Counted from the first letter of the stretch, positions 9,865 to 52,540 are shown. The stretch is 64,000 bases of DNA from Candidatus Magasanikiibacteriota bacterium (GCA_016189025.1 JACPGS010000018.1:6921-70920), one strand, 5' to 3'. Notes: generated by a model not told the origin, from the letters alone. Numbers and translations: made by a program.

Positions 9865-9974
9865 GACTGTAGAAGAATACCGACGATAATCGTTATCCGC
9901 CTGGTCGCTGTCGCTATTGTTAGGATTGCCTGGTCGGTCGCCCCGACTTAGTCGGGGCGCCCTGATGCTAACTG
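9865..9974. repeat. Family-B MITE-like repeat, truncated copy (left TIR only)
   Basis: gactgtagaagaatacc TIR, then ctggtcgctgtcgctattg…ggtcggtcgCCCCGACTTAGTCGGGGcgccctgatgctaac. It lacks the large outer stem of full copies. Confidence 0.5.
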
Positions 9975-10000
9975 ATTTTTTTCATCCTCATCCCTAGTAC

Positions 10001-12506: not shown

Positions 12507-12575
12507 TCCTTGCGTTGAATTGCGAAATTGCCCTCTTCTGGTCGCTCGGTCGTGGTATACATTCTTGGCAATGTT

Positions 12576-13628: not shown

Positions 13629-14764
13629 AGATTGCTCATGTAGTCGGCACTTTTCCGCCGCATCCGGGCGGCATGGGGCAGGTGGCGCTAGATGAGTGCC
13701 GGGAATTAGCAGCGCGCGGGCATCACGTTACGGTATTTACCATGCGCTATCCCGGCGCCAGTTATCAGCTGTCCTCCGGAGAGCCGTTTTCCGTAGTGCG
13801 GCTTCATCCCTGGCTTAAAGCGGGCGATGCGGGCGCGGTGCCGCAACTGTTATTCCGTTTGGCCGGGTTTGATCTGGTTCATCTCCATTATCCCTGGTAC
13901 GGCGGGGCCGAGTGGGTGTGGCTCGCTAAATGGTTGCGCCGGCAGCGCTATTTGGTTACTTATCATTTGTCGGCGCAGCCGGTAGGCTGGTTTAAGCGGG
14001 CGGTGCAAATAGGGTATGATTTAATTTGGGCGCGGACAATTTTAGGCAACGCGGAAAAATTATTAGTGGTAGACCAAGAATACTTTGCCAACTCTCCCTG
14101 GGGTTTAGCGTCTTGGCCGGCAAAAATTGTGGAATTGCCTAATGGCGTGGATACCGCGGTGTTTCAGCCGGCTAGCCGGACTGTGTCAGCCGAGAAGGGG
14201 GAGCGGACCATTTTATTTGTCGGCAATCTGATGCCGGTGAAGCGATTGGATTTATTGCTTTTAGCAATGCGGCAGTTGTCGCCGGATAACGTCAAATTAG
14301 TGGTGGTAGGCGGCGGGTATGATGAGAAGAAGTATCAAAAATTGACGGCAGACTACGGATTACAGACCGCCGTTCAATTTGCGGGGCGGTGTGATGACCG
14401 GGAAAAGCTCGCCGAATATTATCAGCAGGCGACTTGTCTAGTGGTGCCATCCGAGGCCGAATCATTTTCGTTAGTGGCGCTGGAGGCCATGGCCTGCGGC
14501 TGCCCGGTAATTGCCGCGGATATTCCCGGCCTGCGCGCTCGAATTATCGCGGGTCAAGATGGTTTTTTGTTCACCCCCGGCTCGGTGGCCGATTTAGTTG
14601 CCAAAATTAAATTGCTGTTAAGTTTAAGCGCCGCCGAGCGGCGGCAAATGGGAGAGCGCGGCCGGCAAAAAGTTTTGGCACAATACAGTTTAGAGCAGCA
14701 CGTTAACAGGCTAGAGGAAGTTTATCATCTGTTTCTTCAAACTGGGAAATCTGAATCGATTTAA
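13625..14764 (+). CDS. Family-1 (GT4-type) glycosyltransferase
   Basis: C-terminal motif EAESFSLVALEAMACGCPVIAADIPG, the typical GT4 E-x7-E region. Confidence 0.8.
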   Translation: MKIAHVVGTFPPHPGGMGQVALDECRELAARGHHVTVFTMRYPGASYQLSSGEPFSVVRLHPWLKAGDAGAVPQLLFRLAGFDLVHLHYPWYGGAEWVWLAKWLRRQRYLVTYHLSAQPVGWFKRAVQIGYDLIWARTILGNAEKLLVVDQEYFANSPWGLASWPAKIVELPNGVDTAVFQPASRTVSAEKGERTILFVGNLMPVKRLDLLLLAMRQLSPDNVKLVVVGGGYDEKKYQKLTADYGLQTAVQFAGRCDDREKLAEYYQQATCLVVPSEAESFSLVALEAMACGCPVIAADIPGLRARIIAGQDGFLFTPGSVADLVAKIKLLLSLSAAERRQMGERGRQKVLAQYSLEQHVNRLEEVYHLFLQTGKSESI

Positions 14765-14767
14765 ATT

Positions 14768-14863
14768 ACGCAACGAGCGAGGGAGTGGTAGACGGGTTCC
14801 CTACGCGCGCACCCCCGCGTAGGCGGGGGGAGCACGGAGGGTGTCTACCACGACCGAGCGACT
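14768..14863. repeat. Family-A structured repeat, inverted orientation
   Basis: It is the reverse complement of the consensus ctggtcgctcggtcgTGGTAGAC…GTCTACCActccctcgctc, with inner hairpin ccccgcgtaggcgggggg. Confidence 0.55.
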
Positions 14864-16363: not shown

Positions 16364-16390
16364 ATCCCGATTAGGAAATACATTATTTGA

Positions 16391-16516
16391 CTGGTCGCTG
16401 TCGCTAGTGCTTAAAATCCGCTGGGTCGGTCGCGGCAGACACTCTTTGGGTGCTCTCCCGACTTGAGATCGGGATGCGCGCCCAAAGACACTCGTCTGCC
16501 GCGCCCTGATTCTAAC
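16391..16516. repeat. Family-B MITE-like repeat without clear TIRs
   Basis: ctggtcgctgtcgctagtg…GGCAGACACTCTTTGGGtgctcTCCCGACTTGAGATCGGGAtgcgcgCCCAAAGACACTCGTCTGCCgcgccctgattctaac. Confidence 0.55.
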
Positions 16517-16570
16517 TAGTTAAGCCTCTTTATATGGTTTTTAACCGTTAATTCTTGTTAATCACGGTAT

Positions 16571-24514: not shown

Positions 24515-24542
24515 AGATTTTAATTACGGAACTACTATATTT

Positions 24543-24652
24543 CTGGTCGCTCGGTTGTGGTAGACACCCCCCCGTGCTCCCCCCGCCTACGCGAGGGTGC
24601 GCGCGCAGGGAACCCGTCTACCACTCCCTCGCTCGGTTTCGTAATTCAAAGT
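24543..24652. repeat. Family-A structured repeat with partial TIRs
   Basis: ctggtcgctcggttGTGGTAGACaccccc…ccccgcctacgcgaggg…GTCTACCActccctcgctcggtttcgtaattcaaag. The left flank carries taattacggaac. Confidence 0.55.
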
Positions 24653-24715
24653 AATGATACTCATTACGTTCACATATTCTAGCAGATGCCTGGCGGTTTG
24701 GCTAGAGGGCAAACA

Positions 24716-24743
24716 AAAAATCCCGACTTAATCGGGATTTTTT
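24716..24743. terminator. Rho-independent terminator
   Basis: aaaaaaTCCCGACTTAATCGGGAttttttg. Confidence 0.6.
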
Positions 24744-24877
24744 GTGCTCATTCAGACCGTCTCGCTACTGTCATTCCCATCAAAATGGGAATCCATCGGA
24801 CAGTCGGAAAATTGCGTGCCGGGGAGAGTTTGTTGCTCGAGCCTCCCCCCGGCAGGCGGCTCGGCGCTGGCCAGGCG

Positions 24878-25606
24878 CTAATGCTTGGCCGTCTTTTTCT
24901 CCTTTGCTCCTTTGGGCACGGGGCAGAGCTCGGGCACGCTCACCCCGTTCACGGCATCGTAGCTGTTGTTGAAGTTCATTGCCCAGTCGGTGTGGTGCCA
25001 GTCCGTGGCCAGGTGCTTCTTGTGGAAGTAGATGACCACGTACTGTCCTGCGTGCTCTTCTCCATCCTCGCGGGCCGGTTCCACGGTCTGGACCAGACCG
25101 TTGGGAAGCTCGGCGAGCACCGGGAAGATACCGGCGTCGTAGGTGGTACCGTTCCAGACCCTGGCTTCGGCATCCAGGAAGGCCATCGCGTTGTAGCGCG
25201 CGACGTATCGGCACTTGACCTTGCTGCCCCGGTACTTCAGAACTTCGTCGCGCGTCAGGTACGTCTTGGCCGCTCTCTCTTCGATCTGGCTCGGCATCCC
25301 GAAGGCCGCGCGAAATTCCTCCTTCAGGTTGTCGCCGTCGAGCGTCGCGGTCTGCACCTCGCCGGTATTCGGATTCACGACCGCGAGGTTCACGCCGCCT
25401 GCGGGCGCCGGCTGTTCCGGGGCGGCCTGGAGCGCGCTGGCGTCCGGCGGCGTCCGGATCCGCGCCGCCTCGGGGATGCCCACGTTGCCGTTGCCCGAGA
25501 CCACCGGCGCCTGGGCGCACCTGCTGTCGAGGGCGAGCGCGAGGTACAGCATGAAGCCGCCCAGCACCAGCGTCGCCACGAACGGAGGCCAATTTGTCTT
25601 CTTCAT
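24878..25606 (-). CDS. Hypothetical secreted/membrane-anchored protein in a G+C-rich segment with strong SD
   Basis: Start MKKTNWPPFVATLVLGGFMLYLALA (signal anchor) is preceded by AAAGGAGAAC. It has a normal amino-acid composition, unlike the two overlapping Arg/Gly/Pro-rich shadow ORFs. Confidence 0.5.
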   Translation of the reverse strand: MKKTNWPPFVATLVLGGFMLYLALALDSRCAQAPVVSGNGNVGIPEAARIRTPPDASALQAAPEQPAPAGGVNLAVVNPNTGEVQTATLDGDNLKEEFRAAFGMPSQIEERAAKTYLTRDEVLKYRGSKVKCRYVARYNAMAFLDAEARVWNGTTYDAGIFPVLAELPNGLVQTVEPAREDGEEHAGQYVVIYFHKKHLATDWHHTDWAMNFNNSYDAVNGVSVPELCPVPKGAKEKKTAKH

Positions 25607-25727
25607 TGAAGTTCTCCTTTTTCTCCGGATTCCTTTCCGGTAGCAAGAAGCCACTGGACTTCCTCTTACCGGAGGGGAATGCCGGAATTGGCTAAAAAGA
25701 ACAATAACAGCCTAGTTTAGCATAAAA

Positions 25728-25764: not shown

Positions 25765-27210
25765 ATGTTTCTTACGTTTTACGGAGCGGCGCGGGAGGTG
25801 ACCGGGTCTTGCACTTTGGTTGAGGTAGGGGATAAGCGGTTTTTGGTAGACTGCGGCATGTTCCAGGGCGGGCATTTTAACGAGGTCAAAAACGCCGAGC
25901 CGTTTCCTTTTGATCCGGCGTCGTTAGACGCGGTTTTTGTTACTCACGCTCACCTTGACCATATCGGACGTTTGCCGCTACTCGTCAAGCAGGGATTCCG
26001 CGGCACGATCTATGCTACTGCCCCCACCATTGATCTCTTGGAGCTTATTTTAGAAGACGCCCATGCGGTGATGGAGTATGATCATCGCAAACTGGGTCAC
26101 CCGGTGCTTTATGAACGCGAGGATATTGCGCAAGTGCGCGGAGCCTGCCGGAAGGTGGAGTACGGCACTCCAGTTGTCATTCCTGCCCCCGATTTGTCAT
26201 CCCCGCGCAAGCGGGGATCCAGACGAGGGCAGGCTGCAGTAGGGATTTCATTGCTGGATTCCCGCTTACGCGGGAATGACATCAAAGTCGTCTTTCACGA
26301 CGTCGGCCACATCCTTGGTTCCGCTTTTATTGAGATTAGGGCCAACGGCAAACGCGTGGTATTTTCCGGCGATATCGGCAATGCTAATGCCCCCATTGTG
26401 CGCGATACCGAACCGCTGCCGCCGGAGCTGGATGCGCTGGTTTGCGAATCCACCTACGGCAATCGCATTCACGAGTCGGGGAGTCTGCGCCAGGAAATTA
26501 TTGAACGCGAGGTGCTGGCGGCTTTGCGCCGGGGCGGAGTATTGATGATTCCTTCGTTTTCGCTGGAACGCACGCAAGAGCTGATTTATGAACTCAATAA
26601 TTTAATTGATCGCGAGCATCGCCTGCCGGTGGTGCCGATTTTTCTGGATAGCCCCCTGGCTATCGGCGCCCTTAAAGTTTATCGCCAATATCATCAGTAT
26701 TATGATGAGGAGGCCACGCGTTTGTTCCAGGGCGGCGACGACCTGTTCCAATTCCCCGGACTGCAGCTGACCGCCACTACCGAGGAATCCAAACGCATCA
26801 ACCAAGTGCCGGCCCCCAAAATTATTATTGCCGGCGCCGGGATGATGAACGGCGGGCGCATCGTGCATCATGCGCTGCGCTATTTGTCGGATCCTAAAAG
26901 CACGCTCCTTATTATCGGCTACCAGGCCGCCGGGACTTTGGGGCGGGAAATTTTAGAGGGCAATTCGCCGGTGACGGTAATGGGGGAACGCGTTCCCGTA
27001 CGTTGTAGAGTGCGGGCAATCGGCGCCCTGTCGGCCCACGCTGACCAGGAAAAACTACTGGACTGGATCGGCGGCGGTCTGGCCACCCCCAAAAAAGTTT
27101 ATTTGAATCACGGCGAACCGCCTGCCAGCGAGGCGCTCGCCAAACGTCTGACCGCGGAGCTTGGCATTAAGGCGACGGTGGTGAACCATGGTCTTAAAGT
27201 GGAGGTGTAG
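25765..27210 (+). CDS. Beta-CASP metallo-beta-lactamase-fold ribonuclease (RNase J / CPSF-like)
   Basis: MBL motifs (GSCTLVEVGDKRFLVDCGMFQG…THAHLDHIGRLP) and C-terminal beta-CASP and RMMBL regions. Carries an in-frame PE insertion. Confidence 0.8.
   Translation: MFLTFYGAAREVTGSCTLVEVGDKRFLVDCGMFQGGHFNEVKNAEPFPFDPASLDAVFVTHAHLDHIGRLPLLVKQGFRGTIYATAPTIDLLELILEDAHAVMEYDHRKLGHPVLYEREDIAQVRGACRKVEYGTPVVIPAPDLSSPRKRGSRRGQAAVGISLLDSRLRGNDIKVVFHDVGHILGSAFIEIRANGKRVVFSGDIGNANAPIVRDTEPLPPELDALVCESTYGNRIHESGSLRQEIIEREVLAALRRGGVLMIPSFSLERTQELIYELNNLIDREHRLPVVPIFLDSPLAIGALKVYRQYHQYYDEEATRLFQGGDDLFQFPGLQLTATTEESKRINQVPAPKIIIAGAGMMNGGRIVHHALRYLSDPKSTLLIIGYQAAGTLGREILEGNSPVTVMGERVPVRCRVRAIGALSAHADQEKLLDWIGGGLATPKKVYLNHGEPPASEALAKRLTAELGIKATVVNHGLKVEV
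26196..26280. repeat. PE palindromic element inserted in-frame in the RNase gene
   Basis: gtcatCCCCGCGcaaGCGGGGatcc…ggattCCCGCttaCGCGGGaatgac. Translated in frame as …LSSPRKRGSRRGQAAVGISLLDSRLRGNDIKV…. Confidence 0.6.
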
Positions 27211-28149: not shown

Positions 28150-29073
28150 ATGCCTCATGTGCCGGTCTTGGCGAGCGAAGTGATTACCGCGTTACAACTT
28201 TGCTCCGGGATGCTGGTAGTGGATTGTACTCTGGGAGACGGCGGACACGCCGAGGCAATTCTGGAAGCGATCGGCCCTAACGGGAAATTGCTGGGATTAG
28301 ATGCGGATGCCGAATCGTTAGCGCGCGCCGGCAAGCGGTTAGCGCGTTTCCGCAAGCAAATAACTTTGGTAAACGATAATTTTGCTCATTTAGAGAAGAT
28401 AATTCAGCAACAAAAATTCGGCCCGGTCAACGCTATCCTGATGGATTTGGGCTGGTCCTCTACCCAGTTTGCGGAGAGTGGTCGCGGGTTCAGTTTCCAG
28501 GGCGATGAGCCGCTGGATATGAGATATGATCCGGGAATGACACGAGAGACGGCGGCGGAGATTGTGAACCGATTCAGCGAGCCGGAGTTGATGAAAATTT
28601 TTAAACAGTACGGCGAGGAGAAGTTTAGCCAAGCCATTGCCGCGGCGATTGTAAAGGAACGTCAACGCCTCCCGATCGCGCGCACCGGGCAGCTAACAGA
28701 AATTATTTTGGCGGTTTATCGGAACCAATTAAAGAGTAAAAAAGAAGTTCCCTGGGTGGGCGGGTTGCATCCGGCAACTAAGATATTCCAGGCTTTGCGG
28801 ATTGCGGTGAACCACGAGCTGGAGGCGCTCCGACAAGCATTACCTCCAGCCGTGGCCGCGCTCGCCCCCTCGGGACGGCTGGCAATCATTACCTTTCATT
28901 CATTAGAAGATCGGATTGTAAAGCAATGGTTTGCCGCGGCGGCGCGGCGGGAAGAAGTGAAATTGATTACTAAAAAGCCGCTGGTGCCGAGCGCGGCAGA
29001 AATCGCCGCCAACCCTCGCGCCCGGAGCGCCAAATTGCGAGTAGTGGAGAAAGTTGTCGCTCGGTCGCGGTAG
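28150..29073 (+). CDS. rsmH: 16S rRNA (cytosine1402-N4)-methyltransferase RsmH
   Basis: HVPVLASEVITAL…VDCTLGDGGHAEAIL… and the FHSLEDRIVK motif. Its stop codon lies inside the family-A repeat. Confidence 0.9.
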   Translation: MPHVPVLASEVITALQLCSGMLVVDCTLGDGGHAEAILEAIGPNGKLLGLDADAESLARAGKRLARFRKQITLVNDNFAHLEKIIQQQKFGPVNAILMDLGWSSTQFAESGRGFSFQGDEPLDMRYDPGMTRETAAEIVNRFSEPELMKIFKQYGEEKFSQAIAAAIVKERQRLPIARTGQLTEIILAVYRNQLKSKKEVPWVGGLHPATKIFQALRIAVNHELEALRQALPPAVAALAPSGRLAIITFHSLEDRIVKQWFAAAARREEVKLITKKPLVPSAAEIAANPRARSAKLRVVEKVVARSR

Positions 29074-29160
29074 ACACCCTCCGTGCTCTCCCGACTTGAG
29101 ATCGGGATGCGCGCGTAGGGAACCCGTCTACCACTCCCTCGCTCATTGCGTAATTCAGAG
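29053..29160. repeat. Family-A structured repeat overlapping the 3' end of rsmH
   Basis: gtcgctcggtcgcGGTAGACaccctccgtgctcTCCCGACTTGAGATCGGGAtgcgcgcgtagggaacccGTCTACCActccctcgctcattgcgtaattc. Confidence 0.55.
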
Positions 29161-29179
29161 TTATTACAAACTCAACGAT

Positions 29180-29985: not shown

Positions 29986-30158
29986 AATAATTACTCAACC
30001 AGGTAGCATCAGGGCGCGGCAGACGAGTGTCTTTGGGCGCGCACCCCGATTAAATAGGGGGAGCGCCCTATGAGTGTCTGCCGCGACCGACCAGGCAGGC
30101 CGGGCAAGAGCGACAGCGCCCTGACGAATAATAGTATTGTCGGCATTCTTTTCCAGCC
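29986..30158. repeat. Family-B MITE-like repeat, inverted orientation, degenerate TIRs
   Basis: Reverse complement of …GGCAGACACTC…CCCAAAGACACTCGTCTGCCgcgccctgatgcta…, flanked by aaactgtaaaataat and cattcttttccag. Confidence 0.5.
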
Positions 30159-34456: not shown

Positions 34457-34517
34457 TGCCCTTGACTATTTGTTTAGGATGGTTCATAATCTACCCTGAT
34501 TAGAATTGCCTTAGTTA

Positions 34518-34606
34518 AGTCGCTCGGTCGTGGTAGACACTCTACGTGCTCTCCCGACTTAGTCGGGATGCGCGCGTAGAGTTCTCGTCTACCACTCCCT
34601 CGCTCA
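34518..34606. repeat. Family-A structured repeat
   Basis: gtcgctcggtcGTGGTAGACactctacgtgctcTCCCGACTTAGTCGGGAtgcgcgcgtagagttctcGTCTACCActccctcgctca. Confidence 0.55.
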
Positions 34607-34638
34607 GAGTCTCGTTCATAGTTTTTTCCTTATCCCTT

Positions 34639-35591: not shown

Positions 35592-35777
35592 AACTGCAGA
35601 AGAATGCTAACTGTATAGTTGTTCGCCCGGTCGCTATCGCTATTGCTAAATTTAACCTGGTTGGTCGCGGCAGACACTCTTTGGGTGCTCCCCCCGCCTA
35701 CGCGGGGGCTGCGCGCCCAAAGACACTCGTCTGCCGCGCCCTGATGCTAACTGGTTATTTCTATTCTTCTACAGTCT
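35592..35777. mobile_element. Family-B MITE-like element, full length with terminal inverted repeats
   Basis: Left TIR aactgcagaagaatgc, right TIR tattcttctacagtc. The internal stem is GGCAGACACTCTTTGGG…CCCAAAGACACTCGTCTGCC, with inner hairpin CCCCCCGCCTACGCGGGGG. Confidence 0.6.
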
Positions 35778-38239: not shown

Positions 38240-38456
38240 AGGGTGAGGATAGTAGGACGGTAGGAAAGTAGGATTGTAGAATGGTGTAAGACGGCAGGAG
38301 AGGCGGATATAGAGTAACCCAGAAGGGGCAGAACAGCAAGGGTGTACGATGGGGAGAAAATGTGGGCAGAATCAGGCGCTTCTTTTTTTGCCGCTCCTCG
38401 CGTATACTATTGGCTAGTATTCCCTTATGAGCTGTGAATTACGAAACTGCCATAAC

Positions 38457-38566
38457 CTGGTCGCTCGGTCGTGGTAGACACCCTCCGTGCTCGATCCCGA
38501 CTTCGTCGGGACTGCGCGCGTAGGGAACCCGTCTACCACTCCCTCGCTCAGTTTAGTAATTCAAAG
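38457..38566. repeat. Family-A structured repeat with TIR-like flanks
   Basis: gaattacgaaac…ctggtcgctcggtcGTGGTAGAC…cgatCCCGACTTCGTCGGGAct…GTCTACCActccctcgctcagtttagtaattc. Confidence 0.55.
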
Positions 38567-38569
38567 CTT

Positions 38570-40459
38570 ATGAGATTGTTGCGTTTAGTGGCCGCGGTCT
38601 ACCTGGTGTTGCTCGCAGCCGGTTTTTACCTCTTGGCGATTTCCCGCACCGGAGAATCAGTCGCTTCGCCCTGGCAGACCATCCGCCCGGCCTATCTTTA
38701 TGTATTTTTCGCCGCTACCCTGGCGCTCGGGGCATTGGTAATTTGGGGGCGGGGGAGAGTAAAGTGGCTGTTAGCGGCGCTGATTTTCTATTCCCTATTG
38801 CTCCACAGCTATTTGCCGTTGACTCATGAATTAGTGTACGGCGCGGATCAGTGGCGGCATATGGCGGTGGAGGCGCGTTTGGTGGCCGGGCAGCCGCTCT
38901 TAAAGCCGATGTTGCGGCAAGGTGTCAGCAGCTGGTTGAGCATCGGCGATTTTGCTTATAGCGGGCTTTGGAGTATCAGCGCGCTTCTTGCTAAGGCGTT
39001 TTCCGGCCGGGCGTATTTCTTGGTAAATTATAGCCTAATTCACATCAGCAAATGGCTGGTGCCGATTATCTGGTCGGCTGCTTTTCCTTTGCTGTTGTTT
39101 TATTTGGGCCGGAGTTTAGAGTGGAGCAATCGCCGCTCGTTATTTTTAGTCTGGTTAAGCGCCCTGCCTTTTGCTCTGCAGGCCACCGGCTCGCTGACGC
39201 TCCCCAGTAGCCTAGGATTTCTCTGGTGGCTGGGGGGGTTGGTGATTTTAGTCCGGCATTTTGCCCAGCCGACGCGGCGCCAGCTTTGGGCGCTCGGCGG
39301 CATTGGCTTGGTTTTGATTTTTAATCATACGCTTTATTTGATTCTTTTTATCTTAATTTGGGCGCTGGCAGAAATTCTGCGCTGGCGGGTGGCGGGAAAA
39401 TTTTTGCCGGCCTCGGTGATTATTCTTACTTTAGCGGTAGCGGTTACTTTACCAGCAGTGGAATGGGGGGCCGGTTATTTAGAGCAGGGGAGTGGCCGCC
39501 CGGCGTTTGCTTCCGTCAAACAGCTGCTAGGCAATTTGACTGCGGTCTATTTGGCGTCTGGCCCGCGGCCGCACGACATTGCTATCGGCAATATCCTATT
39601 TAATCAAATACCCGGCGGGGCTTTCGTGGCCAATTTTTTTACGGCCTGGCGCTGGTGGCTGCCGGTATTCGCCCTGTTGTTTTGGGCCGGGGTAATTTAT
39701 GGTTTGATAATTGCCTGGCGCAGTCAGCGGCGAGAATTATTATTAGTAATGATTTTGACAATGGGATTAAGTATCAGTTATGTTGCCGCCCGCTATTGGT
39801 TAGACGGCGAACAGATACTCAATCGCCGCCTGGATCCGGTGCTGGCATTTTTGTCTGTGGTTAGCATTATCATTGCGCTGCCGGCAGTAGCACAACGTTT
39901 TCCTTGGCGGCGTCAGCGAGCCGCCGGATTGGTCGGCTTAGTGATATTATCCAGCGCGATTACTGCCTCGTATTCGCTGGGCCCTGACCTGCCCACCGTC
40001 AGCCGCGATGAGTATCGCGCCATGCAGTATGTGGGGCAGCAGGAGGAGGGTAGTAAGCGCCATTGTGTGATTGCCGACACGATGCCGCTCTTGGCTTTAG
40101 AGGCGATTTCTGGGCGGGAAGTTATCGGGGGAGGATTCCCGATTGATCAATACTTTGCCCAGCCGGAGTTGGCGCGTTTTCGAGCGCAGCTGGATAAAGG
40201 ATTTTTTGAGTGGGATAGCGAAACCGCCTATCAGCTTACCGGCAGCCAGCAGTGTTGGTGGGTTAAAACTGATGCTAAAATGGCGGCCGGACTGGCGCGC
40301 GGCCCGGGGCCGGTTACTAACGTCAAAATATTTGGCAAAACCGTGGTTGTGCGCTATACTCAAGCCAACGCTTCCTACGCGCCGCCGGCGCCCCAAGATT
40401 TTTGGCCGGGGATTGTGCCGCTGGAGGTTGACGGACGCTCGATAAAAAGTAGTTTTTAG
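38570..40459 (+). CDS. Large polytopic membrane protein (putative membrane glycosyltransferase-like / YfhO-like)
   Basis: More than 12 predicted TM helices and a C-terminal soluble domain. Start placed at the ATG 38570 after repeat A. Confidence 0.4.
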   Translation: MRLLRLVAAVYLVLLAAGFYLLAISRTGESVASPWQTIRPAYLYVFFAATLALGALVIWGRGRVKWLLAALIFYSLLLHSYLPLTHELVYGADQWRHMAVEARLVAGQPLLKPMLRQGVSSWLSIGDFAYSGLWSISALLAKAFSGRAYFLVNYSLIHISKWLVPIIWSAAFPLLLFYLGRSLEWSNRRSLFLVWLSALPFALQATGSLTLPSSLGFLWWLGGLVILVRHFAQPTRRQLWALGGIGLVLIFNHTLYLILFILIWALAEILRWRVAGKFLPASVIILTLAVAVTLPAVEWGAGYLEQGSGRPAFASVKQLLGNLTAVYLASGPRPHDIAIGNILFNQIPGGAFVANFFTAWRWWLPVFALLFWAGVIYGLIIAWRSQRRELLLVMILTMGLSISYVAARYWLDGEQILNRRLDPVLAFLSVVSIIIALPAVAQRFPWRRQRAAGLVGLVILSSAITASYSLGPDLPTVSRDEYRAMQYVGQQEEGSKRHCVIADTMPLLALEAISGREVIGGGFPIDQYFAQPELARFRAQLDKGFFEWDSETAYQLTGSQQCWWVKTDAKMAAGLARGPGPVTNVKIFGKTVVVRYTQANASYAPPAPQDFWPGIVPLEVDGRSIKSSF

Positions 40460-43705: not shown

Positions 43706-43889
43706 AACTGTAGAAGAATACCAGCAAACTTGCTGTTTGGCTGGTCGCTATCGCTATTGCGGTAACTCACTTGGTTGGTCGCGGCAGACACTCTTTGGGT
43801 GCTCCCCCCGCTTACGCGGGGGTGCGCGCCCAAAGACACTCGTCTGCCGCTCCCTGATGCTAACTAGTTGTTCCTATTCTTTTACAGTC
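43706..43889. mobile_element. Family-B MITE-like element, full length with TIRs
   Basis: Left TIR aactgtagaagaatacc, right TIR tattcttttacagtc. The internal structure is almost identical to the 35592..35777 copy. Confidence 0.6.
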
Positions 43890-44751: not shown

Positions 44752-46200
44752 ATGAAGAAGTTAGCTATTCGAGACCCATTTTTGTTCGGCGAATGGTTTG
44801 ACCTAGGATGGTTTCACAGCTGTCATATCTATGGCCATACGATCACCATCAAGGAACGGCTTGGCTATGGGTTAAGTCAGGAAGTGGTAGAACAGGCAGG
44901 CACCATAGAGCGAATTTATTTTTCTCGCTCGGAGTGGACCAGAATTGGTAAGAAATACTTAAGCGAAGTTATCGCCAAACCTGCCAAGTTAAAAAAATTG
45001 CTCTCCGACCTGCGACGCGCTTCGAATCAGCTGCTGGTTTTCTCGCAAAAATTATTCACGGCTGATCCCGCCACCTTTTCCGGACAGCGGTTGGTACGCC
45101 TATTTGAGGCTTATCACGCGCGCCATCACGCGGTGTGGGCGATCGGTCAGGTGCCAAATGTATTGGAATTTCAAAATGCTTTCCTTACTGATTACCTTAA
45201 ACATTGGCTCGCCGGGCAGTCCCTTGCCGGAGCGGAACCGGTTAAAGTTTTTCAAACCTTGGTCACCCCCCGCGAACTTTCGGCCGCCCAGCAAGAGGAG
45301 CGCGCTATGCTGCGTCTGGCAGCGCAAAAAAATCCGGCGGTCGCTTTGCGCAAACATTGGCGCCAATTCAAGTGGCTGCAATTCGGCTGGACCGGCCCTG
45401 ATTTAACCCCGGAGTATTTTATTGACGTGCATCAGCGACTCTATAATGAAGGCCGGGTAAAATCAATTTTAAGCAAAACTTTACTAGCTGACCGGCAATT
45501 GGTGCGCGATAAAGAGCGACTAACAAAACAATTGCACTGCCCGCCTAAGATTAAGACTTTATTCCGCTTGCTGGAAGAACTGCTGTTCCTCAAATCGCAT
45601 CGGATGGATGCTCTCTACACTAGCTATAGCGCTATCCAGCCCTATTTAAAGCACCTGGCCCGCCGACATTATCTGGCGCTGCCGCAGTTATATAATCTTT
45701 ATCTGCCGGAATTAATCGCTATGTTGCGGCAGGGAGCAATTGATGCGGACTATCTTAATAATTTAGCCAAGTATTCGGTACGTTATTACGATGGCAAGCG
45801 TTGGTATTTACTCTTTGGTCAGGAAGCACGGCAAATAACCGAGGCAATCAAGCGTCGTCTGCCGCCTACCCCACTGCTCTCGGAACTTAAGGGAGAATGC
45901 GCCTATCCGGGCAAAGTTACCGGCAAGGTCTATATTATCAATCGGGCCGGGGAAATGGGCAAGTTTGAGTCGGGAGCAATTTTAGTTTCTAATATTACCG
46001 ACCCCTCGCTGTTGCCGGCCATGAAGCGGGCGGCAGCTTTCGTTACCAATACCGGCGGACTCACCTGCCACGCGGCGATTGTGGCGCGTGAGGTGCAAAT
46101 ACCCGGCGTCATCGGCACCAAAATTGCCACGCAAGCGCTCCGGGATGGCGATTTGGTAGAGGTAGACGCGACGGCGGGAGTGGTAAGGAAAATTAACTAA
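44752..46200 (+). CDS. PEP-utilising-enzyme phosphohistidine (swivel) domain protein, paralog 1; divergent N-domain, no ATP-binding domain
   Basis: C-terminus GECAYPGKVTGKVYII…ILVSNITDPSLLPAMKRAAAFVTNTGGLTCHAAIVAREVQIPGVIG…GDLVEVDA has the canonical PEP-utilizers mobile-domain His motif. Confidence 0.8.
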   Translation: MKKLAIRDPFLFGEWFDLGWFHSCHIYGHTITIKERLGYGLSQEVVEQAGTIERIYFSRSEWTRIGKKYLSEVIAKPAKLKKLLSDLRRASNQLLVFSQKLFTADPATFSGQRLVRLFEAYHARHHAVWAIGQVPNVLEFQNAFLTDYLKHWLAGQSLAGAEPVKVFQTLVTPRELSAAQQEERAMLRLAAQKNPAVALRKHWRQFKWLQFGWTGPDLTPEYFIDVHQRLYNEGRVKSILSKTLLADRQLVRDKERLTKQLHCPPKIKTLFRLLEELLFLKSHRMDALYTSYSAIQPYLKHLARRHYLALPQLYNLYLPELIAMLRQGAIDADYLNNLAKYSVRYYDGKRWYLLFGQEARQITEAIKRRLPPTPLLSELKGECAYPGKVTGKVYIINRAGEMGKFESGAILVSNITDPSLLPAMKRAAAFVTNTGGLTCHAAIVAREVQIPGVIGTKIATQALRDGDLVEVDATAGVVRKIN

Positions 46201-46203
46201 ACT

Positions 46204-47277
46204 ATGCTGGACACGGAAGTAGAAAAAATTGTGGCGGCCCTTGACTGGGAAAAACGCTGGATGGAGCGTTTTACCCTTTTTGCCACATCATTAATCGGCG
46301 ACGTCTATTTTTTTGGCTGTCAGGAGCAATTGGGAGTGGCATTCAACCGGATGTTCTTTGTTTACCAGGAAGGGATGGTTACGTGTTATCAGCTGATTTC
46401 AGAAAATACGGTCTTTGGCAACGCGCTGGCGCGCCGTTTGGAGGCGGATCACCATCTGGTTGATGGGTGGAACCGGGAAGTTAAAGATAAAGTTGATGAG
46501 GTTCTTAGTTTGGTTGCCGCCTACGAAGGCACCCTTTTTGAAGAGTCACACTACCTGGCTTTTGAGCACGCTTTTCGCGCACTGCAGCCACCCTTCGTTC
46601 GCTTAACCAGAGTCGCCAATTATCTGGCGCCGTCTTGGCACAATACTTTGTTGCCGCCACTGAATGCCATGCGTCTGGCCACGGAAACGGTATACGGCCG
46701 CGTTGATTCGTTTGTGCAGCGATCATTACGGCAATTAGCCGGCCAGATTGGCCGCGATCCTGATTTGGTAGAACTATTATATCATTATGAAGTGAGGGAA
46801 TTTGTTAAGCAGGGCACTTTGCCACCGGATGCCGAATTAAGAAGCCGTGCGCCGGTTAGCGGATTATATTTTGAAAACGGACGGCAATTCTTTTGTGATA
46901 GTAAAGAAGTTGGCTTATTTCAACGCCTGGTTGCCGATAAATTTGGCTCCCAGGATGGTATTGTTCGCGGGGTCACTGCGGTTCCCGGATATGTGAAGGG
47001 TACGGCGCGAATAATTTTTGACCCCCAAAAACCGGGTGTCTTTAATGACGGCGATATTCTGGTGACTAACATGACGTATCCGGAGTTTGTGCCCCTGATG
47101 AAAAAAGCCGGGGCGATTGTTACCGATGGCGGCGGCATTTTGTGCCACGCGGCCATTGTTGCTCGAGAATTGGGCAAACCCTGCCTGATCAATACCCAGG
47201 TAGCCACCTCGACTTTTCACGATGGTGAGCAGGTGGAGGTAGATGCGACGCAAGGAACAATCAAGAGAGCGGCATAG
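46204..47277 (+). CDS. PEP-utilising-enzyme swivel-domain protein, paralog 2 (shorter, distinct N-domain)
   Basis: …GVTAVPGYVKGTARII…ILVTNMTYPEFVPLMKKAGAIVTDGGGILCHAAIVARELGKPCLIN…GEQVEVDA. Confidence 0.8.
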   Translation: MLDTEVEKIVAALDWEKRWMERFTLFATSLIGDVYFFGCQEQLGVAFNRMFFVYQEGMVTCYQLISENTVFGNALARRLEADHHLVDGWNREVKDKVDEVLSLVAAYEGTLFEESHYLAFEHAFRALQPPFVRLTRVANYLAPSWHNTLLPPLNAMRLATETVYGRVDSFVQRSLRQLAGQIGRDPDLVELLYHYEVREFVKQGTLPPDAELRSRAPVSGLYFENGRQFFCDSKEVGLFQRLVADKFGSQDGIVRGVTAVPGYVKGTARIIFDPQKPGVFNDGDILVTNMTYPEFVPLMKKAGAIVTDGGGILCHAAIVARELGKPCLINTQVATSTFHDGEQVEVDATQGTIKRAA

Positions 47278-47280
47278 CCT

Positions 47281-48804
47281 ATGGAGCCTAAATACCTGCA
47301 CGACAACGACCCCTGGCTGCTCGCCGAGGACATCCCCGGCAGCGATTTGTTTTTCTTTCAAATTCCCTTTTGGTGTTTTGCCAACCGTTTCGGGGAACAA
47401 ACCGGACGAGCGTATAAAAAAGTTTTGGCTCATTTTTCCGGGTATCAGATGTGGTTTTATTTTGGCGAGCAGGATTCTTATGAAGTAGGGGAACATATCG
47501 TTAATCGGATTGTGGAACAGCCAGGCTATGGGGCGGATATTAACCAAAATATCATAGCGATAGCCGACAAATTACGCGCTTGGTGCGCCACCATTCCCGT
47601 GGAAAAACTCAATAATCTTTCCGACGCCGAGTTGTGGGAAATATATCACACGCATTACCAGCTCCATTGCGAATTTTACACCTGGGTATGGATCGGCAAT
47701 GCGACGGACATGTTCCATGCTAATTTTACCAACCGGCTAAAGGCTTACTTAAAACAAATCGGCGTGGTAGAAGACAAGATTAATGAGTATCTGGTTACTC
47801 TGACTACTCCCACCGCGCGAACGCCGGTCTTTGTGGAACAGCAGGATTTGTTGTTGATTGCGGAGCAAATATACCAGGATCAGGCGATCAGGCAGTTGTG
47901 CGCTACTTCCACTCCGCTGGTATACGAAGACCTCCCGCGCCGCCTGCAAACAATGATCCAACAGCACTGGGAGAAGTATCACTATACCAAATTTATTTTT
48001 GTGGAGGGCGAATATACCATTAATGATTATCTCCGGCAGCTGCAAGATATATTGCGCGGCGAAACTGCGCCGCGGGCGATTATTGAGGGACAAATAGAAG
48101 CGCTGCAGGCGGCGGAAGAAAAAAAGCGAATTCTTTTGGCGCAGTTGCCCGTTGCCCCGGAGTGGCAGGAGATATTTGCGGTTTTTGGCGACTTCATGGT
48201 AACCAAAATTTATCGTCGTTATGCCCAGCTTTTTGCCTTGCATCGCATGGATAAAGTTCTTAAGGAAATTGCCCGGCGCAAGCAGCTTTCCCTGAAACAG
48301 GTAAAATTCATGTTGAAAAGTGAAGTAGAGCGGTTGCTCCTCAAAAATTCCTGTGATCCGGAACTGTTGCGGGAACGCGCAAAGCAGTGCGTGTATTATG
48401 TGGAAAAAGATGGCGAGGCAGTATACGTCGGCCCGGCAGCCGAGGCCCTTATTGCAAAAACCGTTCGCACTATTGATGCCTCAATCAGTGAATTGAAGGG
48501 CGAAGTCGGGTGCACGGGTTATGCCCAGGGACGAGTAAAAATTGTTATTCGCGCCGAAGAGATGGCCAAGATGAACGACGGCGATATTTTGGTTTCTATC
48601 GCCACTGACCCGGACATTGTGCCGGCGATGAAAAAAGCCGCGGCGATTGTTACCGAACAGGGCGGCGTTACCAGCCACGCCGCCATTGTCAGCCGCGAGC
48701 TTGGCATCCCTTGCGTCATCGGCACCAAAATCGCCACCAAAATATTTAAGGACGGGGATTTGGTGGAAGTAGATGCGAATAGGGGAGTGGTGAGAAAAAT
48801 ATGA
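47281..48804 (+). CDS. PEP-utilising-enzyme swivel-domain protein, paralog 3
   Basis: …GEVGCTGYAQGRVKIV…ILVSIATDPDIVPAMKKAAAIVTEQGGVTSHAAIVSRELGIPCVIGTKIATKIFKDGDLVEVDA. Confidence 0.8.
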   Translation: MEPKYLHDNDPWLLAEDIPGSDLFFFQIPFWCFANRFGEQTGRAYKKVLAHFSGYQMWFYFGEQDSYEVGEHIVNRIVEQPGYGADINQNIIAIADKLRAWCATIPVEKLNNLSDAELWEIYHTHYQLHCEFYTWVWIGNATDMFHANFTNRLKAYLKQIGVVEDKINEYLVTLTTPTARTPVFVEQQDLLLIAEQIYQDQAIRQLCATSTPLVYEDLPRRLQTMIQQHWEKYHYTKFIFVEGEYTINDYLRQLQDILRGETAPRAIIEGQIEALQAAEEKKRILLAQLPVAPEWQEIFAVFGDFMVTKIYRRYAQLFALHRMDKVLKEIARRKQLSLKQVKFMLKSEVERLLLKNSCDPELLRERAKQCVYYVEKDGEAVYVGPAAEALIAKTVRTIDASISELKGEVGCTGYAQGRVKIVIRAEEMAKMNDGDILVSIATDPDIVPAMKKAAAIVTEQGGVTSHAAIVSRELGIPCVIGTKIATKIFKDGDLVEVDANRGVVRKI

Positions 48805-48865
48805 AGAAACGAATCTGGCGAAAAAATTTTGTTATCAGGAGCAGGGAATTTTTAGCCTGAATAAT

Positions 48866-50374
48866 ATGGCCCAGGACTACACCATCTTCGTCCGCGATTT
48901 TCAGACCAGCCTGTTTCCGCAGTATATTTTAACGCACTTGTGGAACACCAGCGGCGTGGTGAATACCAAAGCGCAGATTGGCATGGCGAATCGGAACAAA
49001 GTGCTGGAGTACATTATTCCGCCGGGCGATTGGGAACATTTGCAAACGCAGGTACATGAGCGAACTGCCGCCGACCGAAATTTTATTCCCCAGGCCGTGC
49101 GCCAGGCGCGGGCGGCCGTAGATGCACTTAATGAGTATACAGAACAGCAAATAGCGCAGAAAGATTTGACCTGCGCCAGCAACGAAGAATTAGCCGAGAT
49201 TTACCGGCGCTATTTTGAGCTGAACATTCCCTGTTATGGTTACGGCAACATCATTTTTATTATTGAATTCGGCGAGCGCGCTTATTTTAGCAATCAAATC
49301 AAGCAGCTCTTGGCCGCGCGTGCGCCGGAACAGCCGGCAGCGTATTTTACTTTACTGACCACTCCGGCGGAACCGCACATTTTTCAGGAGCAAAGTTTGG
49401 CTCTGCTCCAGCTGGCCAGCGCCATTGAATTGCAAACCGAGATTAAAGATTGGTTTTTGGCAAACGCCGGCGCGGGCATTGAACATCAGCTATTAGCGAA
49501 ATATCCGGCAGTGCTTGAGCAGTTCCAAAAACATCGCGCTGCCTACTACTGGCTGTTTTACAGCTGGGAAGGCCCGGCGCTGACGGTGGGCGATTTTGTG
49601 ATGTTTGCCGTGGATATTTTACGGCGCGGGTCGGCCGGCGCGCAGTTAGCAGAAAAAAAGGCAGAACAGGCCACGCTCGGCACGCGTCAGGAAAAGATTA
49701 TGCAGGAGCTGCACTTTTCCGAAGAAGAGCGCTGGTGGGTAAAAATGGCGCAACTATGCGCCGCGTTCCAGCCCTATCGCAAAGCGCGGCAATTCAAATC
49801 CTGCAGCCACATGGAAAAGTATTTCCGGGAGGTAGCGCGGCGATTATATATCAGTCTGGATCAGGCGCGGTATCTTACTCATTACGAAGTTGCCGAGGCG
49901 CTACGCAAGGGCGAAGTAGACACTAACCTGCTAAACGAACGCCGCAAATTTTTTGTGTATATTTTTGATAATAACCAGCCGCGGTGTCTTACCGGTTCCC
50001 CAGCCGAAGCGTGGTATCAAGAACACGTGGCACAAGAGATGCATCAATTTTCCGGAGAACTACGCGGCACGGTCGCCTGCCCGGGCCGGGCCACGGGAAA
50101 AGTGCGGATGGTGAACAGTTACGAAGAAGGCCAACAGTTTCAGCCAGGTGAAATTTTAGTTTCATTTTCTACTAACCCCACCCTTCTGCCGGCGATGCGC
50201 CTGGCCGCGGCGATTATTACCGAAGAAGGCGGGCTCACCTGCCACGCGGCCATCGTCAGCCGCGAGCTCAACATCCCTTGCGTGGTGGGAATTAAGGGGA
50301 TTGTTTCCGGACTGCAAACTGGCGAAACAATAGAAGTGGATGCGATAAAAGGGTTAGTTAAAAAATTATCCTGA
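48866..50374 (+). CDS. PEP-utilising-enzyme swivel-domain protein, paralog 4
   Basis: …GTVACPGRATGKVRMV…ILVSFSTNPTLLPAMRLAAAIITEEGGLTCHAAIVSRELNIPCVVG…GETIEVDA. Confidence 0.8.
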   Translation: MAQDYTIFVRDFQTSLFPQYILTHLWNTSGVVNTKAQIGMANRNKVLEYIIPPGDWEHLQTQVHERTAADRNFIPQAVRQARAAVDALNEYTEQQIAQKDLTCASNEELAEIYRRYFELNIPCYGYGNIIFIIEFGERAYFSNQIKQLLAARAPEQPAAYFTLLTTPAEPHIFQEQSLALLQLASAIELQTEIKDWFLANAGAGIEHQLLAKYPAVLEQFQKHRAAYYWLFYSWEGPALTVGDFVMFAVDILRRGSAGAQLAEKKAEQATLGTRQEKIMQELHFSEEERWWVKMAQLCAAFQPYRKARQFKSCSHMEKYFREVARRLYISLDQARYLTHYEVAEALRKGEVDTNLLNERRKFFVYIFDNNQPRCLTGSPAEAWYQEHVAQEMHQFSGELRGTVACPGRATGKVRMVNSYEEGQQFQPGEILVSFSTNPTLLPAMRLAAAIITEEGGLTCHAAIVSRELNIPCVVGIKGIVSGLQTGETIEVDAIKGLVKKLS

Positions 50375-50381
50375 TAACATT

Positions 50382-51947
50382 ATGGCGATGGCCAAGGCGC
50401 TACGGCGCGATCGCTGGATTGTCGGCAATGAAGAAGACGGCACTAATTTGTACGCGCTCGGTTTGTATACGCCGATGTTTATTGTTGATTTTCCCCGGCT
50501 GGCCCAAGCGCCGCCTTGCTATCACGTATTTGAATTCAAAGGCGGCCATATGCGCTGGCTGGTGCCGGAAAATCACTCGCTCGCAATCGCCCGGCTTTTG
50601 TTGGAGCGCGTCCTCCGGCGTCCTAATTATTTTGGCGAAATCAGGCAAAAATTGGCGCGCATTTGCCATCAGGCTTATGCTTTTGGCAGGCAAGTTTTGC
50701 GGCTGAAAGTAGGAACTATCAGCGACGCCAGGTTATTATCACTACTGATGCGTTTTCAAAAATTGCAACGCACCATTATCGCCTATGGCATGATTTCTAC
50801 TTTAGTTGAAATACCCCACAGCCAGTTTGTTAAGCACCTGGAGAATTTTCTGGCTGATCACGTCAGCAAAATTAGCGCGCCGCCTGGCGCCCCTGAATAT
50901 TTTAGTATTCTTTCGGCGATTCCCGAAGAGAGTAGGCAGCGCCAGGAAGCCAAAAGTTTGCTGCGGTTATTGCAGACGGTGAAAAAATCTAAAAAATTAT
51001 TTAACGCCGTCGCCTCACTTAAACCAGGGGAGGGTAGCAAAAAATTTTTACGGCCTCCAGGCGATCCGGCAATGTTATCCTTTTATCGGCAGCTCAATTA
51101 TCATGTCAAAGAATTCTGCTGGGCGTATTATGGCTACGAAGGACCGGCGTACGGTATTGACCGCCCCCTTTCCGAGCTTGCCCAACTGCTCTCCGATAAA
51201 GTAGACCCGGCGGCGGAGCTAAAGCGTTTAGCCCGGGAGCGGGCGCAAATCAGGCCGGCGACCAAAATAGCCGAGCGTACCCTGAAGCTATCGGCTTACG
51301 AGCGCGCCTTATTCCAGGCCCTGCGCGATACGGTGTTTATGAAGCTTTATCGCAAAGACGCCATGACTTTTGGGTTTTATTCCGCCGAGTCATTGCTTAA
51401 AGAATTGGCGCGCCGGGCCGGCATTGCTTTAGCCGCCGCTAAATGTTTGGCGCCGGGCGAATATGCGCGGGCATTGAGGCAGGACAAAAAATTGATTGCC
51501 GAACTCTATCGGCGGATTCCGTATGCCGTATATGCGGCGGATTCTCTTAAACCGCGGGTATTATCCGGTAGTCGCGCCCGCCGGTTTATTAAAAGTATTT
51601 ACCGCGAGGAAGCGGTCGGCGATGTCCGCGAGCTCAAAGGCCAGGTGGCCTGTTTAGGGCACGCTACCGGCGCGGTAAAAATTATCAACGTCGCGGCGGA
51701 AATGGGCAAAATGAATAAGGGCGATATTTTAGTGTCCATCGCCACGATTCCCGATATTGTGCCGGCGATGAAAAAGGCGGCCGCGATTGTTACCGAGCAG
51801 GGCGGCATTACCTCTCACGCCGCCATCGTCAGCCGCGAACTCGGCGTCCCCTGCGTCATCGGCACCAAAATAGCCACCAAAGTATTTAAGGACGGGGATT
51901 TGGTAGAGGTGGATGCCATTGAGGGAATTGTGTACAAGCTCAAGTGA
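50382..51947 (+). CDS. PEP-utilising-enzyme swivel-domain protein, paralog 5
   Basis: …GQVACLGHATGAVKII…ILVSIATIPDIVPAMKKAAAIVTEQGGITSHAAIVSRELGVPCVIGTKIATKVFKDGDLVEVDA. Confidence 0.8.
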   Translation: MAMAKALRRDRWIVGNEEDGTNLYALGLYTPMFIVDFPRLAQAPPCYHVFEFKGGHMRWLVPENHSLAIARLLLERVLRRPNYFGEIRQKLARICHQAYAFGRQVLRLKVGTISDARLLSLLMRFQKLQRTIIAYGMISTLVEIPHSQFVKHLENFLADHVSKISAPPGAPEYFSILSAIPEESRQRQEAKSLLRLLQTVKKSKKLFNAVASLKPGEGSKKFLRPPGDPAMLSFYRQLNYHVKEFCWAYYGYEGPAYGIDRPLSELAQLLSDKVDPAAELKRLARERAQIRPATKIAERTLKLSAYERALFQALRDTVFMKLYRKDAMTFGFYSAESLLKELARRAGIALAAAKCLAPGEYARALRQDKKLIAELYRRIPYAVYAADSLKPRVLSGSRARRFIKSIYREEAVGDVRELKGQVACLGHATGAVKIINVAAEMGKMNKGDILVSIATIPDIVPAMKKAAAIVTEQGGITSHAAIVSRELGVPCVIGTKIATKVFKDGDLVEVDAIEGIVYKLK

Positions 51948-51955
51948 TTTGTGTT

Positions 51956-52360: not shown

Positions 52361-52540
52361 AAAACGATTCCCGCTCTTCTAGAGTGGGAATCTCGGAGCT
52401 TCTCTCGTAAAAGAGAAGCCATTTGACAGAAGCAGCTTACGCCACTTCGCCAGGTATATTACCAAAGTAAAAATATTTGTCAAGTAAACTATCCACATAG
52501 TCCAATCAAGGAATCTAAACTATAGTTTATAGTTCCTACT

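Follow-up and report, generated by a model that had tools for sequence, protein, structure and literature searches.

An inverted dimer of CGTC-1-type hairpins lies in-frame in a beta-CASP RNase gene of a Patescibacterium, in a predicted surface loop

Repetitive extragenic palindromes (REPs) with a CGTC tag form a described class of bacterial hairpin repeats, in which the CGTC-1 type includes dRS3 of Neisseria and RPE-6 of Rickettsia conorii (Di Nocera, De Gregorio, and Rocco 2013; PMC3733652). CGTC-1 repeats have a CGTC tag (often TGTC), an 8-bp stem that starts from A-T, a 4-nt loop, and a CCA tail; they are multicopy, mainly intergenic, and mostly arranged as inverted dimers, which encode 20 to 30 amino acids when they fall within genes. 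The hosts covered by that survey were Proteobacteria, Chlorobi, Bacteroidetes, Spirochaetes, and Thermotogae, and it lists RNA stability and termination among the functions that REPs can serve (PMC3733652). Here we describe a repeat of this kind in a 64,000-nt stretch of DNA from an uncultured, ultra-small member of the Patescibacteria, Candidatus Magasanikiibacteriota (GCA_016189025.1 JACPGS010000018.1:6921-70920), the whole of which we call the window and number from its first letter. Two of its hairpins lie inside the open reading frame (ORF) of a beta-CASP RNase gene. We consider it very likely that this segment is an inverted dimer of CGTC-1 REP hairpins that landed in-frame in a beta-hairpin turn of the metallo-beta-lactamase (MBL) domain and is tolerated there, and we infer that it was spread by an Ssn-type nuclease.

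The Ssn system was described from the Neisseria repeat, which was redefined as a 28-nt sequence termed NTS, CGTCATTCCCGCGMAVGCGGGAATCYRG, that the small GIY-YIG nuclease SsnA cuts as single-stranded DNA; Ssn-related motifs (SRM) flank ssn genes in many bacteria (Nat Commun 2025, PMC11893778). Rickettsia palindromic elements (RPEs) are selfish repeats that occur in-frame in housekeeping genes unrelated to one another, where the fold of the protein can accommodate them (Ogata et al. 2000, described in PMC10969869). A literature search with the DNA string GTCATTCCCGCG led to the Ssn paper (PMC11893778), and searches with peptide signatures (RFRGND, VIPAKAGI, and others) found nothing; the words "Patescibacteria," "Candidatus," and "intragenic" do not occur in the main text of that paper. 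Across the literature searched, Patescibacteria were not linked with REPs or with MITEs (miniature transposable elements that have inverted repeats). A further class of paired repeats, the REPINs, consists of doublets of GTAG-tagged REPs associated with RAYT, tyrosine transposases resembling those of IS200/IS605.

The host gene encodes a 481-residue protein in which Pfam recognized Beta-Casp (2.8e-37), RMMBL, and Lactamase_B. Among proteins of solved structure, it is most closely related to the ribonuclease TTHA0252 of Thermus thermophilus (phmmer against PDB, E = 4.6e-97), and Foldseek matched a model of the protein to the TTHA0252 structures 3ie1 and 2dkf with a TMt of 0.94. The initial annotation had recognized the beta-CASP RNase family correctly, although the RNase J and CPSF orthologs to which it pointed are not the nearest relatives: RNase J is not among the solved-structure matches, and archaeal and eukaryotic CPSF-type proteins are remoter than TTHA0252. 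All close homologs come from Patescibacteria, most of them annotated as Magasanikbacteria, and the residues that are invariant across the RNase family are all kept. The features of the gene and its insert are as follows.

25765 to 27210, + strand: beta-CASP RNase ORF of the TTHA0252 type, 481 amino acids, with MBL, beta-CASP, and RMMBL parts
26176 to 26187, + strand: GTCATTCCTGCC, encoding VIPA; ambiguous, either host sequence that mimics the arm tag or a remnant of an older outer arm
26188 to 26280, + strand: net insertion of 93 nt, 31 codons, amino acids 142 to 172 (PDLSSPRKRGSRRGQAAVGISLLDSRLRGND), delimited by comparison with an insert-free ortholog
26195 to 26222, + strand: left arm, TGTC-ATCCCCGC-GCAA-GCGGGGAT-CCAG, a CGTC-1-type REP hairpin, translated as SSPRKRGS
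26223 to 26253, + strand: spacer of 31 nt, containing GGGCAGG, not conserved among copies
26254 to 26281, - strand: right arm, TGTC-ATTCCCGC-GTAA-GCGGGAAT-CCAG, that is, TGTCATTCCCGCGTAAGCGGGAATCCAG, translated on the + strand as LDSRLRGND

Positions 26195 to 26281 read TGTCATCCCCGCGCAAGCGGGGATCCAG, the 31-nt spacer, and CTGGATTCCCGCTTACGCGGGAATGACA. Each 28-nt arm is an inverted copy of the other and by itself forms a perfect hairpin (8-bp stem, 4-nt loop); in the left arm, 26199 to 26206 pair with 26211 to 26218 around the loop GCAA, between the tag TGTC and the tail CCA. Both hairpins lie where they had first been reported, and the ORF runs through them uninterrupted. Their placement between the MBL motifs and the beta-CASP region needs correction, as the insert is inside the MBL domain, between motif 2 (HAHLDH, amino acids 61 to 66) and the motif-3 histidine (H182).

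The boundaries of the insert were read from an empty site. The closest insert-free ortholog, protein P0002 on contig L203, is 68 to 72% identical to the window protein, depending on the alignment, and the contig is syntenic with the window (gene order LepA, MurJ, beta-CASP, MraZ, RsmH). Where this sister has Y-YEELALPA|ARVI-FHD, the window protein has Y-GTPVVIPA, 31 additional residues, and IKVV-FHD. At the DNA level, the empty site reads TAT TAC GAG GAG CTC GCC CTA CCC GCT | GCG CGC GTT ATT TTT CAC GAC and the filled site TAC GGC ACT CCA GTT GTC ATT CCT GCC | 93 nt | ATC AAA GTC GTC TTT CAC GAC. Because the syntenic sister shows the empty site, the net gain can be set at 93 nt, or 31 codons. 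The initial estimate of about 30 amino acids was therefore close in length, with its limits misplaced: the IKV 3' of the insert, which it had included, is host sequence outside the 31 added codons. No target-site duplication is visible at the junctions compared with the sister's empty site. A protein 100% identical to the window RNase (P0001) is present in an independent Logan assembly; the best match among GTDB species representatives is just 64% identical, and therefore an empty site from the same species is lacking.

Ortholog alignments, a check that the initial annotation had proposed, show that a homologous segment at this position is far from universal. The phmmer alignment breaks at the insert, with query residues 136 to 170 opposite residues 126 to 129 of TTHA0252. 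Most of the best 120 homologs are 447 to 458 amino acids long, and in a MAFFT alignment the query has 42 residues between the conserved Tyr133 and FHD, versus 11 or 12 in most close homologs. The insert is missing from approximately 85% of the 120 closest orthologs and from every distant one, and 59 orthologs spanning many phyla have a short turn of 2 to 4 amino acids at the site. A palindromic repeat present in-frame in a conserved gene and missing from its orthologs is the situation described for RPEs, and the window contains a second case, in mnmA.

Arms of the same kind recur in the window far beyond chance expectation. The arm motif, with up to 3 mismatches, has 7 matches (0.00 expected from shuffles); a strict scan for the tag and a perfect stem found 6 arms (0.13 in simulations); and the published SRM pattern, HGTCWYN(0-2)YYVSBRHN(0-5)WNVSBRGN(0-2)RNCYNB (PMC11893778), retrieved 6 true arms and 1 likely chance match (0.6 in shuffles). 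There are five arm loci in the 64 kb, four of them dimers, against 0.13 to 0.6 arms by chance. Besides the RNase copy, they are the following.

339 to 441, + strand: intergenic dimer, flanked by the 3' end of dnaJ and by a sigma-factor gene
24769 to 24795, + strand: solo arm, TGTCATTCCCATCAAAATGGGAATCCA, intergenic on the likeliest gene map
62030 to 62099, + strand: intergenic dimer, left arm 62030 to 62057 (+ strand), right arm 62072 to 62099 (- strand), 14-nt spacer
63213 to 63272, + strand: degenerate dimer in mnmA, in-frame, SSPPRKRGPREVDFRWRGND, in the same reading frame as the beta-CASP copy

The third of these had been noticed before as a second copy at 62021 to 62088; the dimer is real, but that span cuts its second hairpin. 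The other three add to the copies in the initial annotation. The dimer at 62030 to 62099, which stands behind a terminator-like hairpin and ahead of an HD-domain gene, has a predicted RNA fold of -49.4 kcal/mol (z = -7.9), and that at 339 to 441 has one of -50.4 kcal/mol (z = -5.6). The longest ORF call for the HD-domain gene, 62066 to 62740, begins within the right arm of the dimer at 62030 to 62099 (MTLDSRFRGNDSG...); translation probably begins at the ATG at 62120 instead. In the other intergenic dimer, the right arm (393 to 441) has an additional hairpin, CCCTCGCGAAAGCGGGGG, nested in its loop, and a palindrome, CCTGCCTGCCGGCAGGCAGG, is likewise nested in the left arm of an RNase ortholog, L002; it seems that the loops of the arms can take up additional insertions.

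The mnmA gene (62753 to beyond 64000), for a tRNA 2-thiouridylase, has three segments without a counterpart in solved MnmA structures. One, amino acids 149 to 172, is the CGTC dimer at 63213 to 63272 (SSPPRKRGP...DFRWRGND), which corresponds to a 24-residue gap in the alignment with those structures. Another, amino acids 289 to 322 (63612 to 63716), is a dimer of the form GTCAT...ATGAC whose stems differ (TGTCATCCCGAGCCGAGTCGAGGGATCC...GGGATGACG). The first (approximately 62882 to 62930) and third inserts share the motif CCCATTCG..GCTCAGGGCAGGC.

The arms in the window match the described class closely. The tag is TGTC at 26195, 26281 (- strand), 62030, 62099 (- strand), 339, and 24769, and CGTC at 63213; each of the six perfect arms combines a stem of 8 bp with a loop of 4 nt and a tail of CCA or CTA. 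Judged by sequence, they show every listed CGTC-1 feature, and the element is a small non-autonomous repeat of this class. Against the NTS consensus, for which a match was defined as at most 1 mismatch (PMC11893778), the arm at 62072 to 62099 has 1 mismatch, the right arm at 26254 to 26281 has 2, and the left arms, with the C-variant stem, have at least 3. The arms are inverted, as in MITEs, yet the junctions are without duplication and no parent insertion sequence was seen in the window. Scanned in full against Rfam at gathering thresholds, the window had no matches, introns included, and thus the hairpins and the other repeats of the window do not belong to a curated RNA family or intron.

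The lack of an Rfam match bears on the idea that the segment is an intervening sequence, for example, a mini-intron or an intein, that would be excised once the gene has been transcribed or translated. That a conserved protein is interrupted is what suggests this; at 93 nt the segment is far below the size of group I or II introns and of inteins, intein motifs are absent, and the same sequence occurs in intergenic DNA. We rejected both the intron and the intein on these grounds and give this explanation virtually no weight.

How the insert might be accommodated was examined with an AlphaFold2 model of the window RNase, built with a 115-sequence alignment (mean predicted local distance difference test [pLDDT] of 89, predicted template modeling score of 0.89). 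In the model, residues 140 to 172 are coil with block-mean pLDDT values of 48 to 63, and residues 154 to 166 are below 50; strands 137 to 139 and 173 to 179 flank the coil, which forms the turn of a beta-hairpin. The position is, as for RPEs, one that the predicted fold can accommodate. The 31 added residues probably make a floppy loop. Modeling of the protein with its insert, part of a check proposed initially, gave the insert as low-confidence coil and the remaining fold intact. On this model, the insert would be a tolerated surface-loop decoration of an otherwise intact, confidently predicted, TTHA0252-like fold that retains every catalytic motif.

The sequence of the arms helps to account for the intact ORF. 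Direct translation shows five of the six frames of an arm to be stop-free: the forward frames VIPAxAGIQ, CHPRxSGDP, and SSPRKRGS and the reverse frames LDxRxRG(N/D)D and WIPAxAGMT are open, and GxPLxRx* is the sole frame with a stop. The RNase ORF stays open because of this and because the insert adds 93 nt. When the length of a dimer is divisible by three, the gene it enters therefore stands a good chance of staying open, and selection removes the rest. We infer that the RNase insert is translated and tolerated, and that it is neutral or close to it, given that selection spares only those insertions that fall in permissive loops; this would also account for the other palindromic inserts that this loop holds in related genomes.

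A different outcome could be that the insertion created a young pseudogene, or that the hairpins act as an internal RNA regulatory or processing site, in which case the protein would be of little importance. The 136-nt region around the RNase copy is predicted to fold strongly as RNA (-58 kcal/mol, z = -4.75), and REPs are known as RNA stability or termination elements (PMC3733652). However, the ORF runs its full length without a frameshift or a stop, the family-invariant residues are kept, a confident fold is modeled around the insert, and many orthologs with comparable inserts are likewise open. We regard both versions as very improbable. The insert could also be an adaptive, selected segment, for example, a basic loop exapted from the repeat for binding RNA or a partner. 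It is rich in arginine and lysine (SSPRKRGSRRGQ...RLRGND), is part of an RNase, in which it precedes the motif-3 histidine by 10 residues, and is found as an identical allele in a second data set. Nevertheless, the peptide is just what the arm yields when translated in frame 3 and in the reverse frame, and unrelated genes and contigs contain it as well; it is missing from the sister and most orthologs, is predicted to be disordered, and has chemically unrelated inserts in its place in other orthologs. An adaptive origin thus appears improbable, and we retain the tolerated dimer as our explanation.

The dimer is widespread beyond the window. The exact asymmetric arrangement, a ATCCCCGC stem followed by a ATTCCCGC stem, is present in at least 120 metagenome contigs. 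Of 126 copies in those contigs, 85 are intergenic and 17 lie at contig ends; the remaining 24 (approximately 19%) are in stop-free frames with at least 60 open codons on each side, some within very long ORFs. The proposal that the hairpins are copies of one element and not gene-specific sequence is borne out by these contigs, by the arms in intergenic DNA of the window, and by the sister's empty site.

A route for mobilization of the element can be proposed. The element would spread as a single-stranded DNA hairpin, which a small Ssn-family GIY-YIG nuclease, its gene lying in another part of the genome, would recognize and cut at the GTCAT tag; the process would resemble the movement of REPINs by RAYT transposases, without target-site duplication. 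Judged from the literature and one metagenome contig, the element is probably mobilized as single-stranded DNA hairpins by an Ssn-type GIY-YIG nuclease. One metagenome contig with the identical dimer (L153; WNFR01337640.1, 500 to 1263) encodes a 97-amino-acid GIY-YIG protein (PF01541, 9e-14) with arms on both sides, and the sister genome encodes an 81-amino-acid GIY-YIG protein 2.2 kb upstream of the RNase gene. Both arrangements are consistent with Ssn mobilization. On L153, full dimers and tandem arrays of half-arms (GCGCTTTCGCGGGAATGAC repeats, spacers of approximately 20 nt) are found on both flanks of the GIY-YIG gene.

Several points weigh against our interpretation. No GIY-YIG or other candidate mobilizing gene was found in the 64-kb window by regular expressions, by phmmer (queried with a YhbQ sequence and with GIY-YIG ORFs of the Candidate Phyla Radiation [CPR]), or by Pfam on small ORFs, and therefore the link to Ssn rests on the literature and one unrelated contig. 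The small ORFs of the window gave PDDEXK_3, a treble-clef zinc finger, an HD domain, and a MazF-like domain in Pfam. No RAYT was noticed on the window gene map, on which no profile screen aimed at RAYT was made. An arginine-rich, basic loop on an RNase could alter RNA binding, and the neutrality of the insert is an assumption. Finally, the left boundary is ambiguous, with an arm-like 8-nt sequence, GTCATTCC, 12 nt upstream of the insertion point.

This ambiguity concerns the VIPA segment, GTCATTCCTGCC, which shares 8 nt of identity with the start of an arm. In addition, CCTGCCC at 26182 to 26188 can pair over 7 bp with GGGCAGG in the spacer (26227 to 26233), for which target mimicry, a nested older arm, or coincidence could account. 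VIPA aligns by position with ALPA of the sister and, counted as host, leaves the usual 12-residue loop. Because the sister shows an empty site, VIPA is more likely host sequence, as far as sequence comparison can tell, and its mimicry of the arm may have drawn the insertion there. The alternative is that it is left over from an older outer arm within which the left hairpin became nested, with the loss of four host codons. We had at first taken the element to span 26176 to 26280 (105 nt, 35 codons, nested in an older arm), a span that the sister's empty site disfavors.

The RNase loop has been occupied more than once. Approximately 19 of 113 close orthologs (about one in six) have a loop of at least 27 amino acids at this turn. 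Among several of them whose DNA was retrieved, in L001/L003 and L002 it holds the same CGTC dimer (66 and 81 nt), inserted at Y+4, counted from the conserved tyrosine, versus Y+8 in the window; in L204 and L205 it holds GTCAT...ATGAC elements with other stems, and in L206 and L005 untagged GC-rich palindromes. In a neighbor-joining tree computed without the loop, insert-bearing orthologs are interspersed with insert-free ones. Because other palindromic inserts occupy the loop, at two or more insertion points, we read it from these sequences as a permissive hot spot that has been colonized repeatedly and independently.

The same distribution could be explained by one ancient insertion in an ancestor of Magasanikbacteria-like lineages, inherited vertically and precisely lost in most, with the arms homogenized by gene conversion or by a cognate enzyme. 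The window, L001/L003, and L002 do share the dimer orientation, the frame of the right arm (DSR.RGND), and the loop itself, and all three would begin at Y+4, in the VIPA frame, if 26176 to 26187 is what remains of an arm. Against this, the insert-bearing orthologs fall into three separate clades, each beside insert-free sequences; the spacers are unrelated among copies; guided by the sister's empty site, the window insertion is at Y+8 and not at Y+4 as elsewhere; and at least five unrelated palindrome families occur in the loop, which argues for repeated hits on a permissive site. A single old insertion followed by many precise losses is the weaker alternative, ranking below repeated colonization, and we think it unlikely.

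Extending the idea of repeated colonization, Patescibacteria may hold an active population of Ssn-associated CGTC/NTS dimers, together with other palindromes, that repeatedly and independently colonize the same permissive loops of core proteins (the RNase, with one in six of its close orthologs, and three MnmA sites) and are targeted to tag-like host sequence such as GTCATTCC. We offer this tentatively, as a possibility that we do not yet favor. If it were true, the CPR would be a second and much larger "Rickettsia-like" case of protein remodeling by selfish DNA, and the arm-like GTCATTCC would hint at the targeting of sequences that mimic the cleavage tag.

The CGTC-1/dRS3/NTS class, which the initial annotation did not recognize in the element, has been described before, as have its in-frame intragenic copies in Rickettsia and other bacteria; the novelty lies in Patescibacteria as a host group and in the recurrent use of one loop. 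The known class of hairpin repeats (dRS3/NTS/RPE-6) is thereby extended to the CPR, where the repeats inflate or distort protein predictions through low-complexity stretches such as SSPRKRGS...DSRFRGND and through false starts such as that at 62066. The loops of this conserved RNase, tolerating 15 to 80 extra residues, amount to a natural experiment. Should the link to an Ssn GIY-YIG nuclease be true, small, streamlined symbiont genomes would suit the study of repeat movement.

Other repeats and genes of the window were recorded alongside. A second abundant repeat family, unrelated to the CGTC arms, comprises two subtypes of approximately 100 to 150 nt that form long imperfect hairpins (RNA z of about -6), often tipped by a small GC hairpin that varies. 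Its copies are intergenic, usually just upstream of + strand genes, and without an Rfam match; long ORF calls that extend into them have false N termini, for example, at 38471, 29054, and 43737. The copies are listed here, with those on the - strand marked.

9893 to 9988: second repeat family
12516 to 12561: second repeat family
14764 to 14863, - strand: second repeat family
16383 to 16524: second repeat family
24521 to 24655: second repeat family
29031 to 29165: second repeat family
29994 to 30131, - strand: second repeat family
34494 to 34626: second repeat family
35619 to 35767: second repeat family
38435 to 38570: second repeat family
43733 to 43880: second repeat family

Between the MurJ-side genes and the beta-CASP gene, the sister contig (L203, 5738 to 9865) carries an extra block with DUF3800, PDDEXK_1, the 81-amino-acid GIY-YIG protein, a PIF1 helicase, and NYN; the corresponding part of the window (24686 to 25700) has a different gene, of approximately 258 amino acids, on the - strand. 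From 44752 to 56529 the window contains a tandem array of approximately seven paralogous genes of about 360 to 520 amino acids each, six of which share a 258-nt segment at 60 to 81% identity (repeat family D1); a MazF-like toxin ORF (51944 to 52360) and other small genes lie between the paralogs. Three tandem 21-nt units at 61164 to 61234 encode SSLEDKV/SSLDDKV/SSLDSKV within a 150-amino-acid coiled-coil ORF (61032 to 61484), and the adjoining ORF at 61645 to 61974 carries a treble-clef zinc-finger motif that is duplicated internally (repeat family D9).

Compared with known systems, the host protein is closest to TTHA0252 (PDB 2dkf and 3ie1), with 38 to 39% identity, a TMt of 0.94, and the same MBL/beta-CASP architecture and motifs; it differs in having 35 residues (136 to 170) where TTHA0252 has 4 (126 to 129). 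The element resembles REPINs in that the spreading unit consists of two inverted REP hairpins and a short spacer and in that target-site duplication was not seen; it differs in that the arms are tagged (C/T)GTC, not GTAG. The T-variant arms are within 1 or 2 mismatches of NTS, the SRM pattern fits, and an arm-GIY-YIG-arm layout occurs on one metagenome contig with the identical dimer. The window differs from the NTS system in containing no ssn gene, and the transformation-limiting role of NTS belongs to competent Neisseria and is not implied here. Like RPEs, the repeat is palindromic and lies in-frame at a fold-compatible position. The classical RPE-1, however, is approximately 150 bp long with a conserved peptide, whereas the unit described here is a dimer of 28-nt hairpins of about 70 to 90 bp with a variable spacer, and only RPE-4 and RPE-6 are of the CGTC type. 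With the CGTC-1 family the arms share the tag, the 8-bp stem starting from A-T, the 4-nt loop, the CCA tail, the inverted dimers, and the in-frame intragenic copies. They differ in their host, a Patescibacterium, from a phylum not among the hosts in PMC3733652, and in the conserved asymmetry of the dimer, which has a ATCCCCGC stem in one arm and a ATTCCCGC stem in the other.

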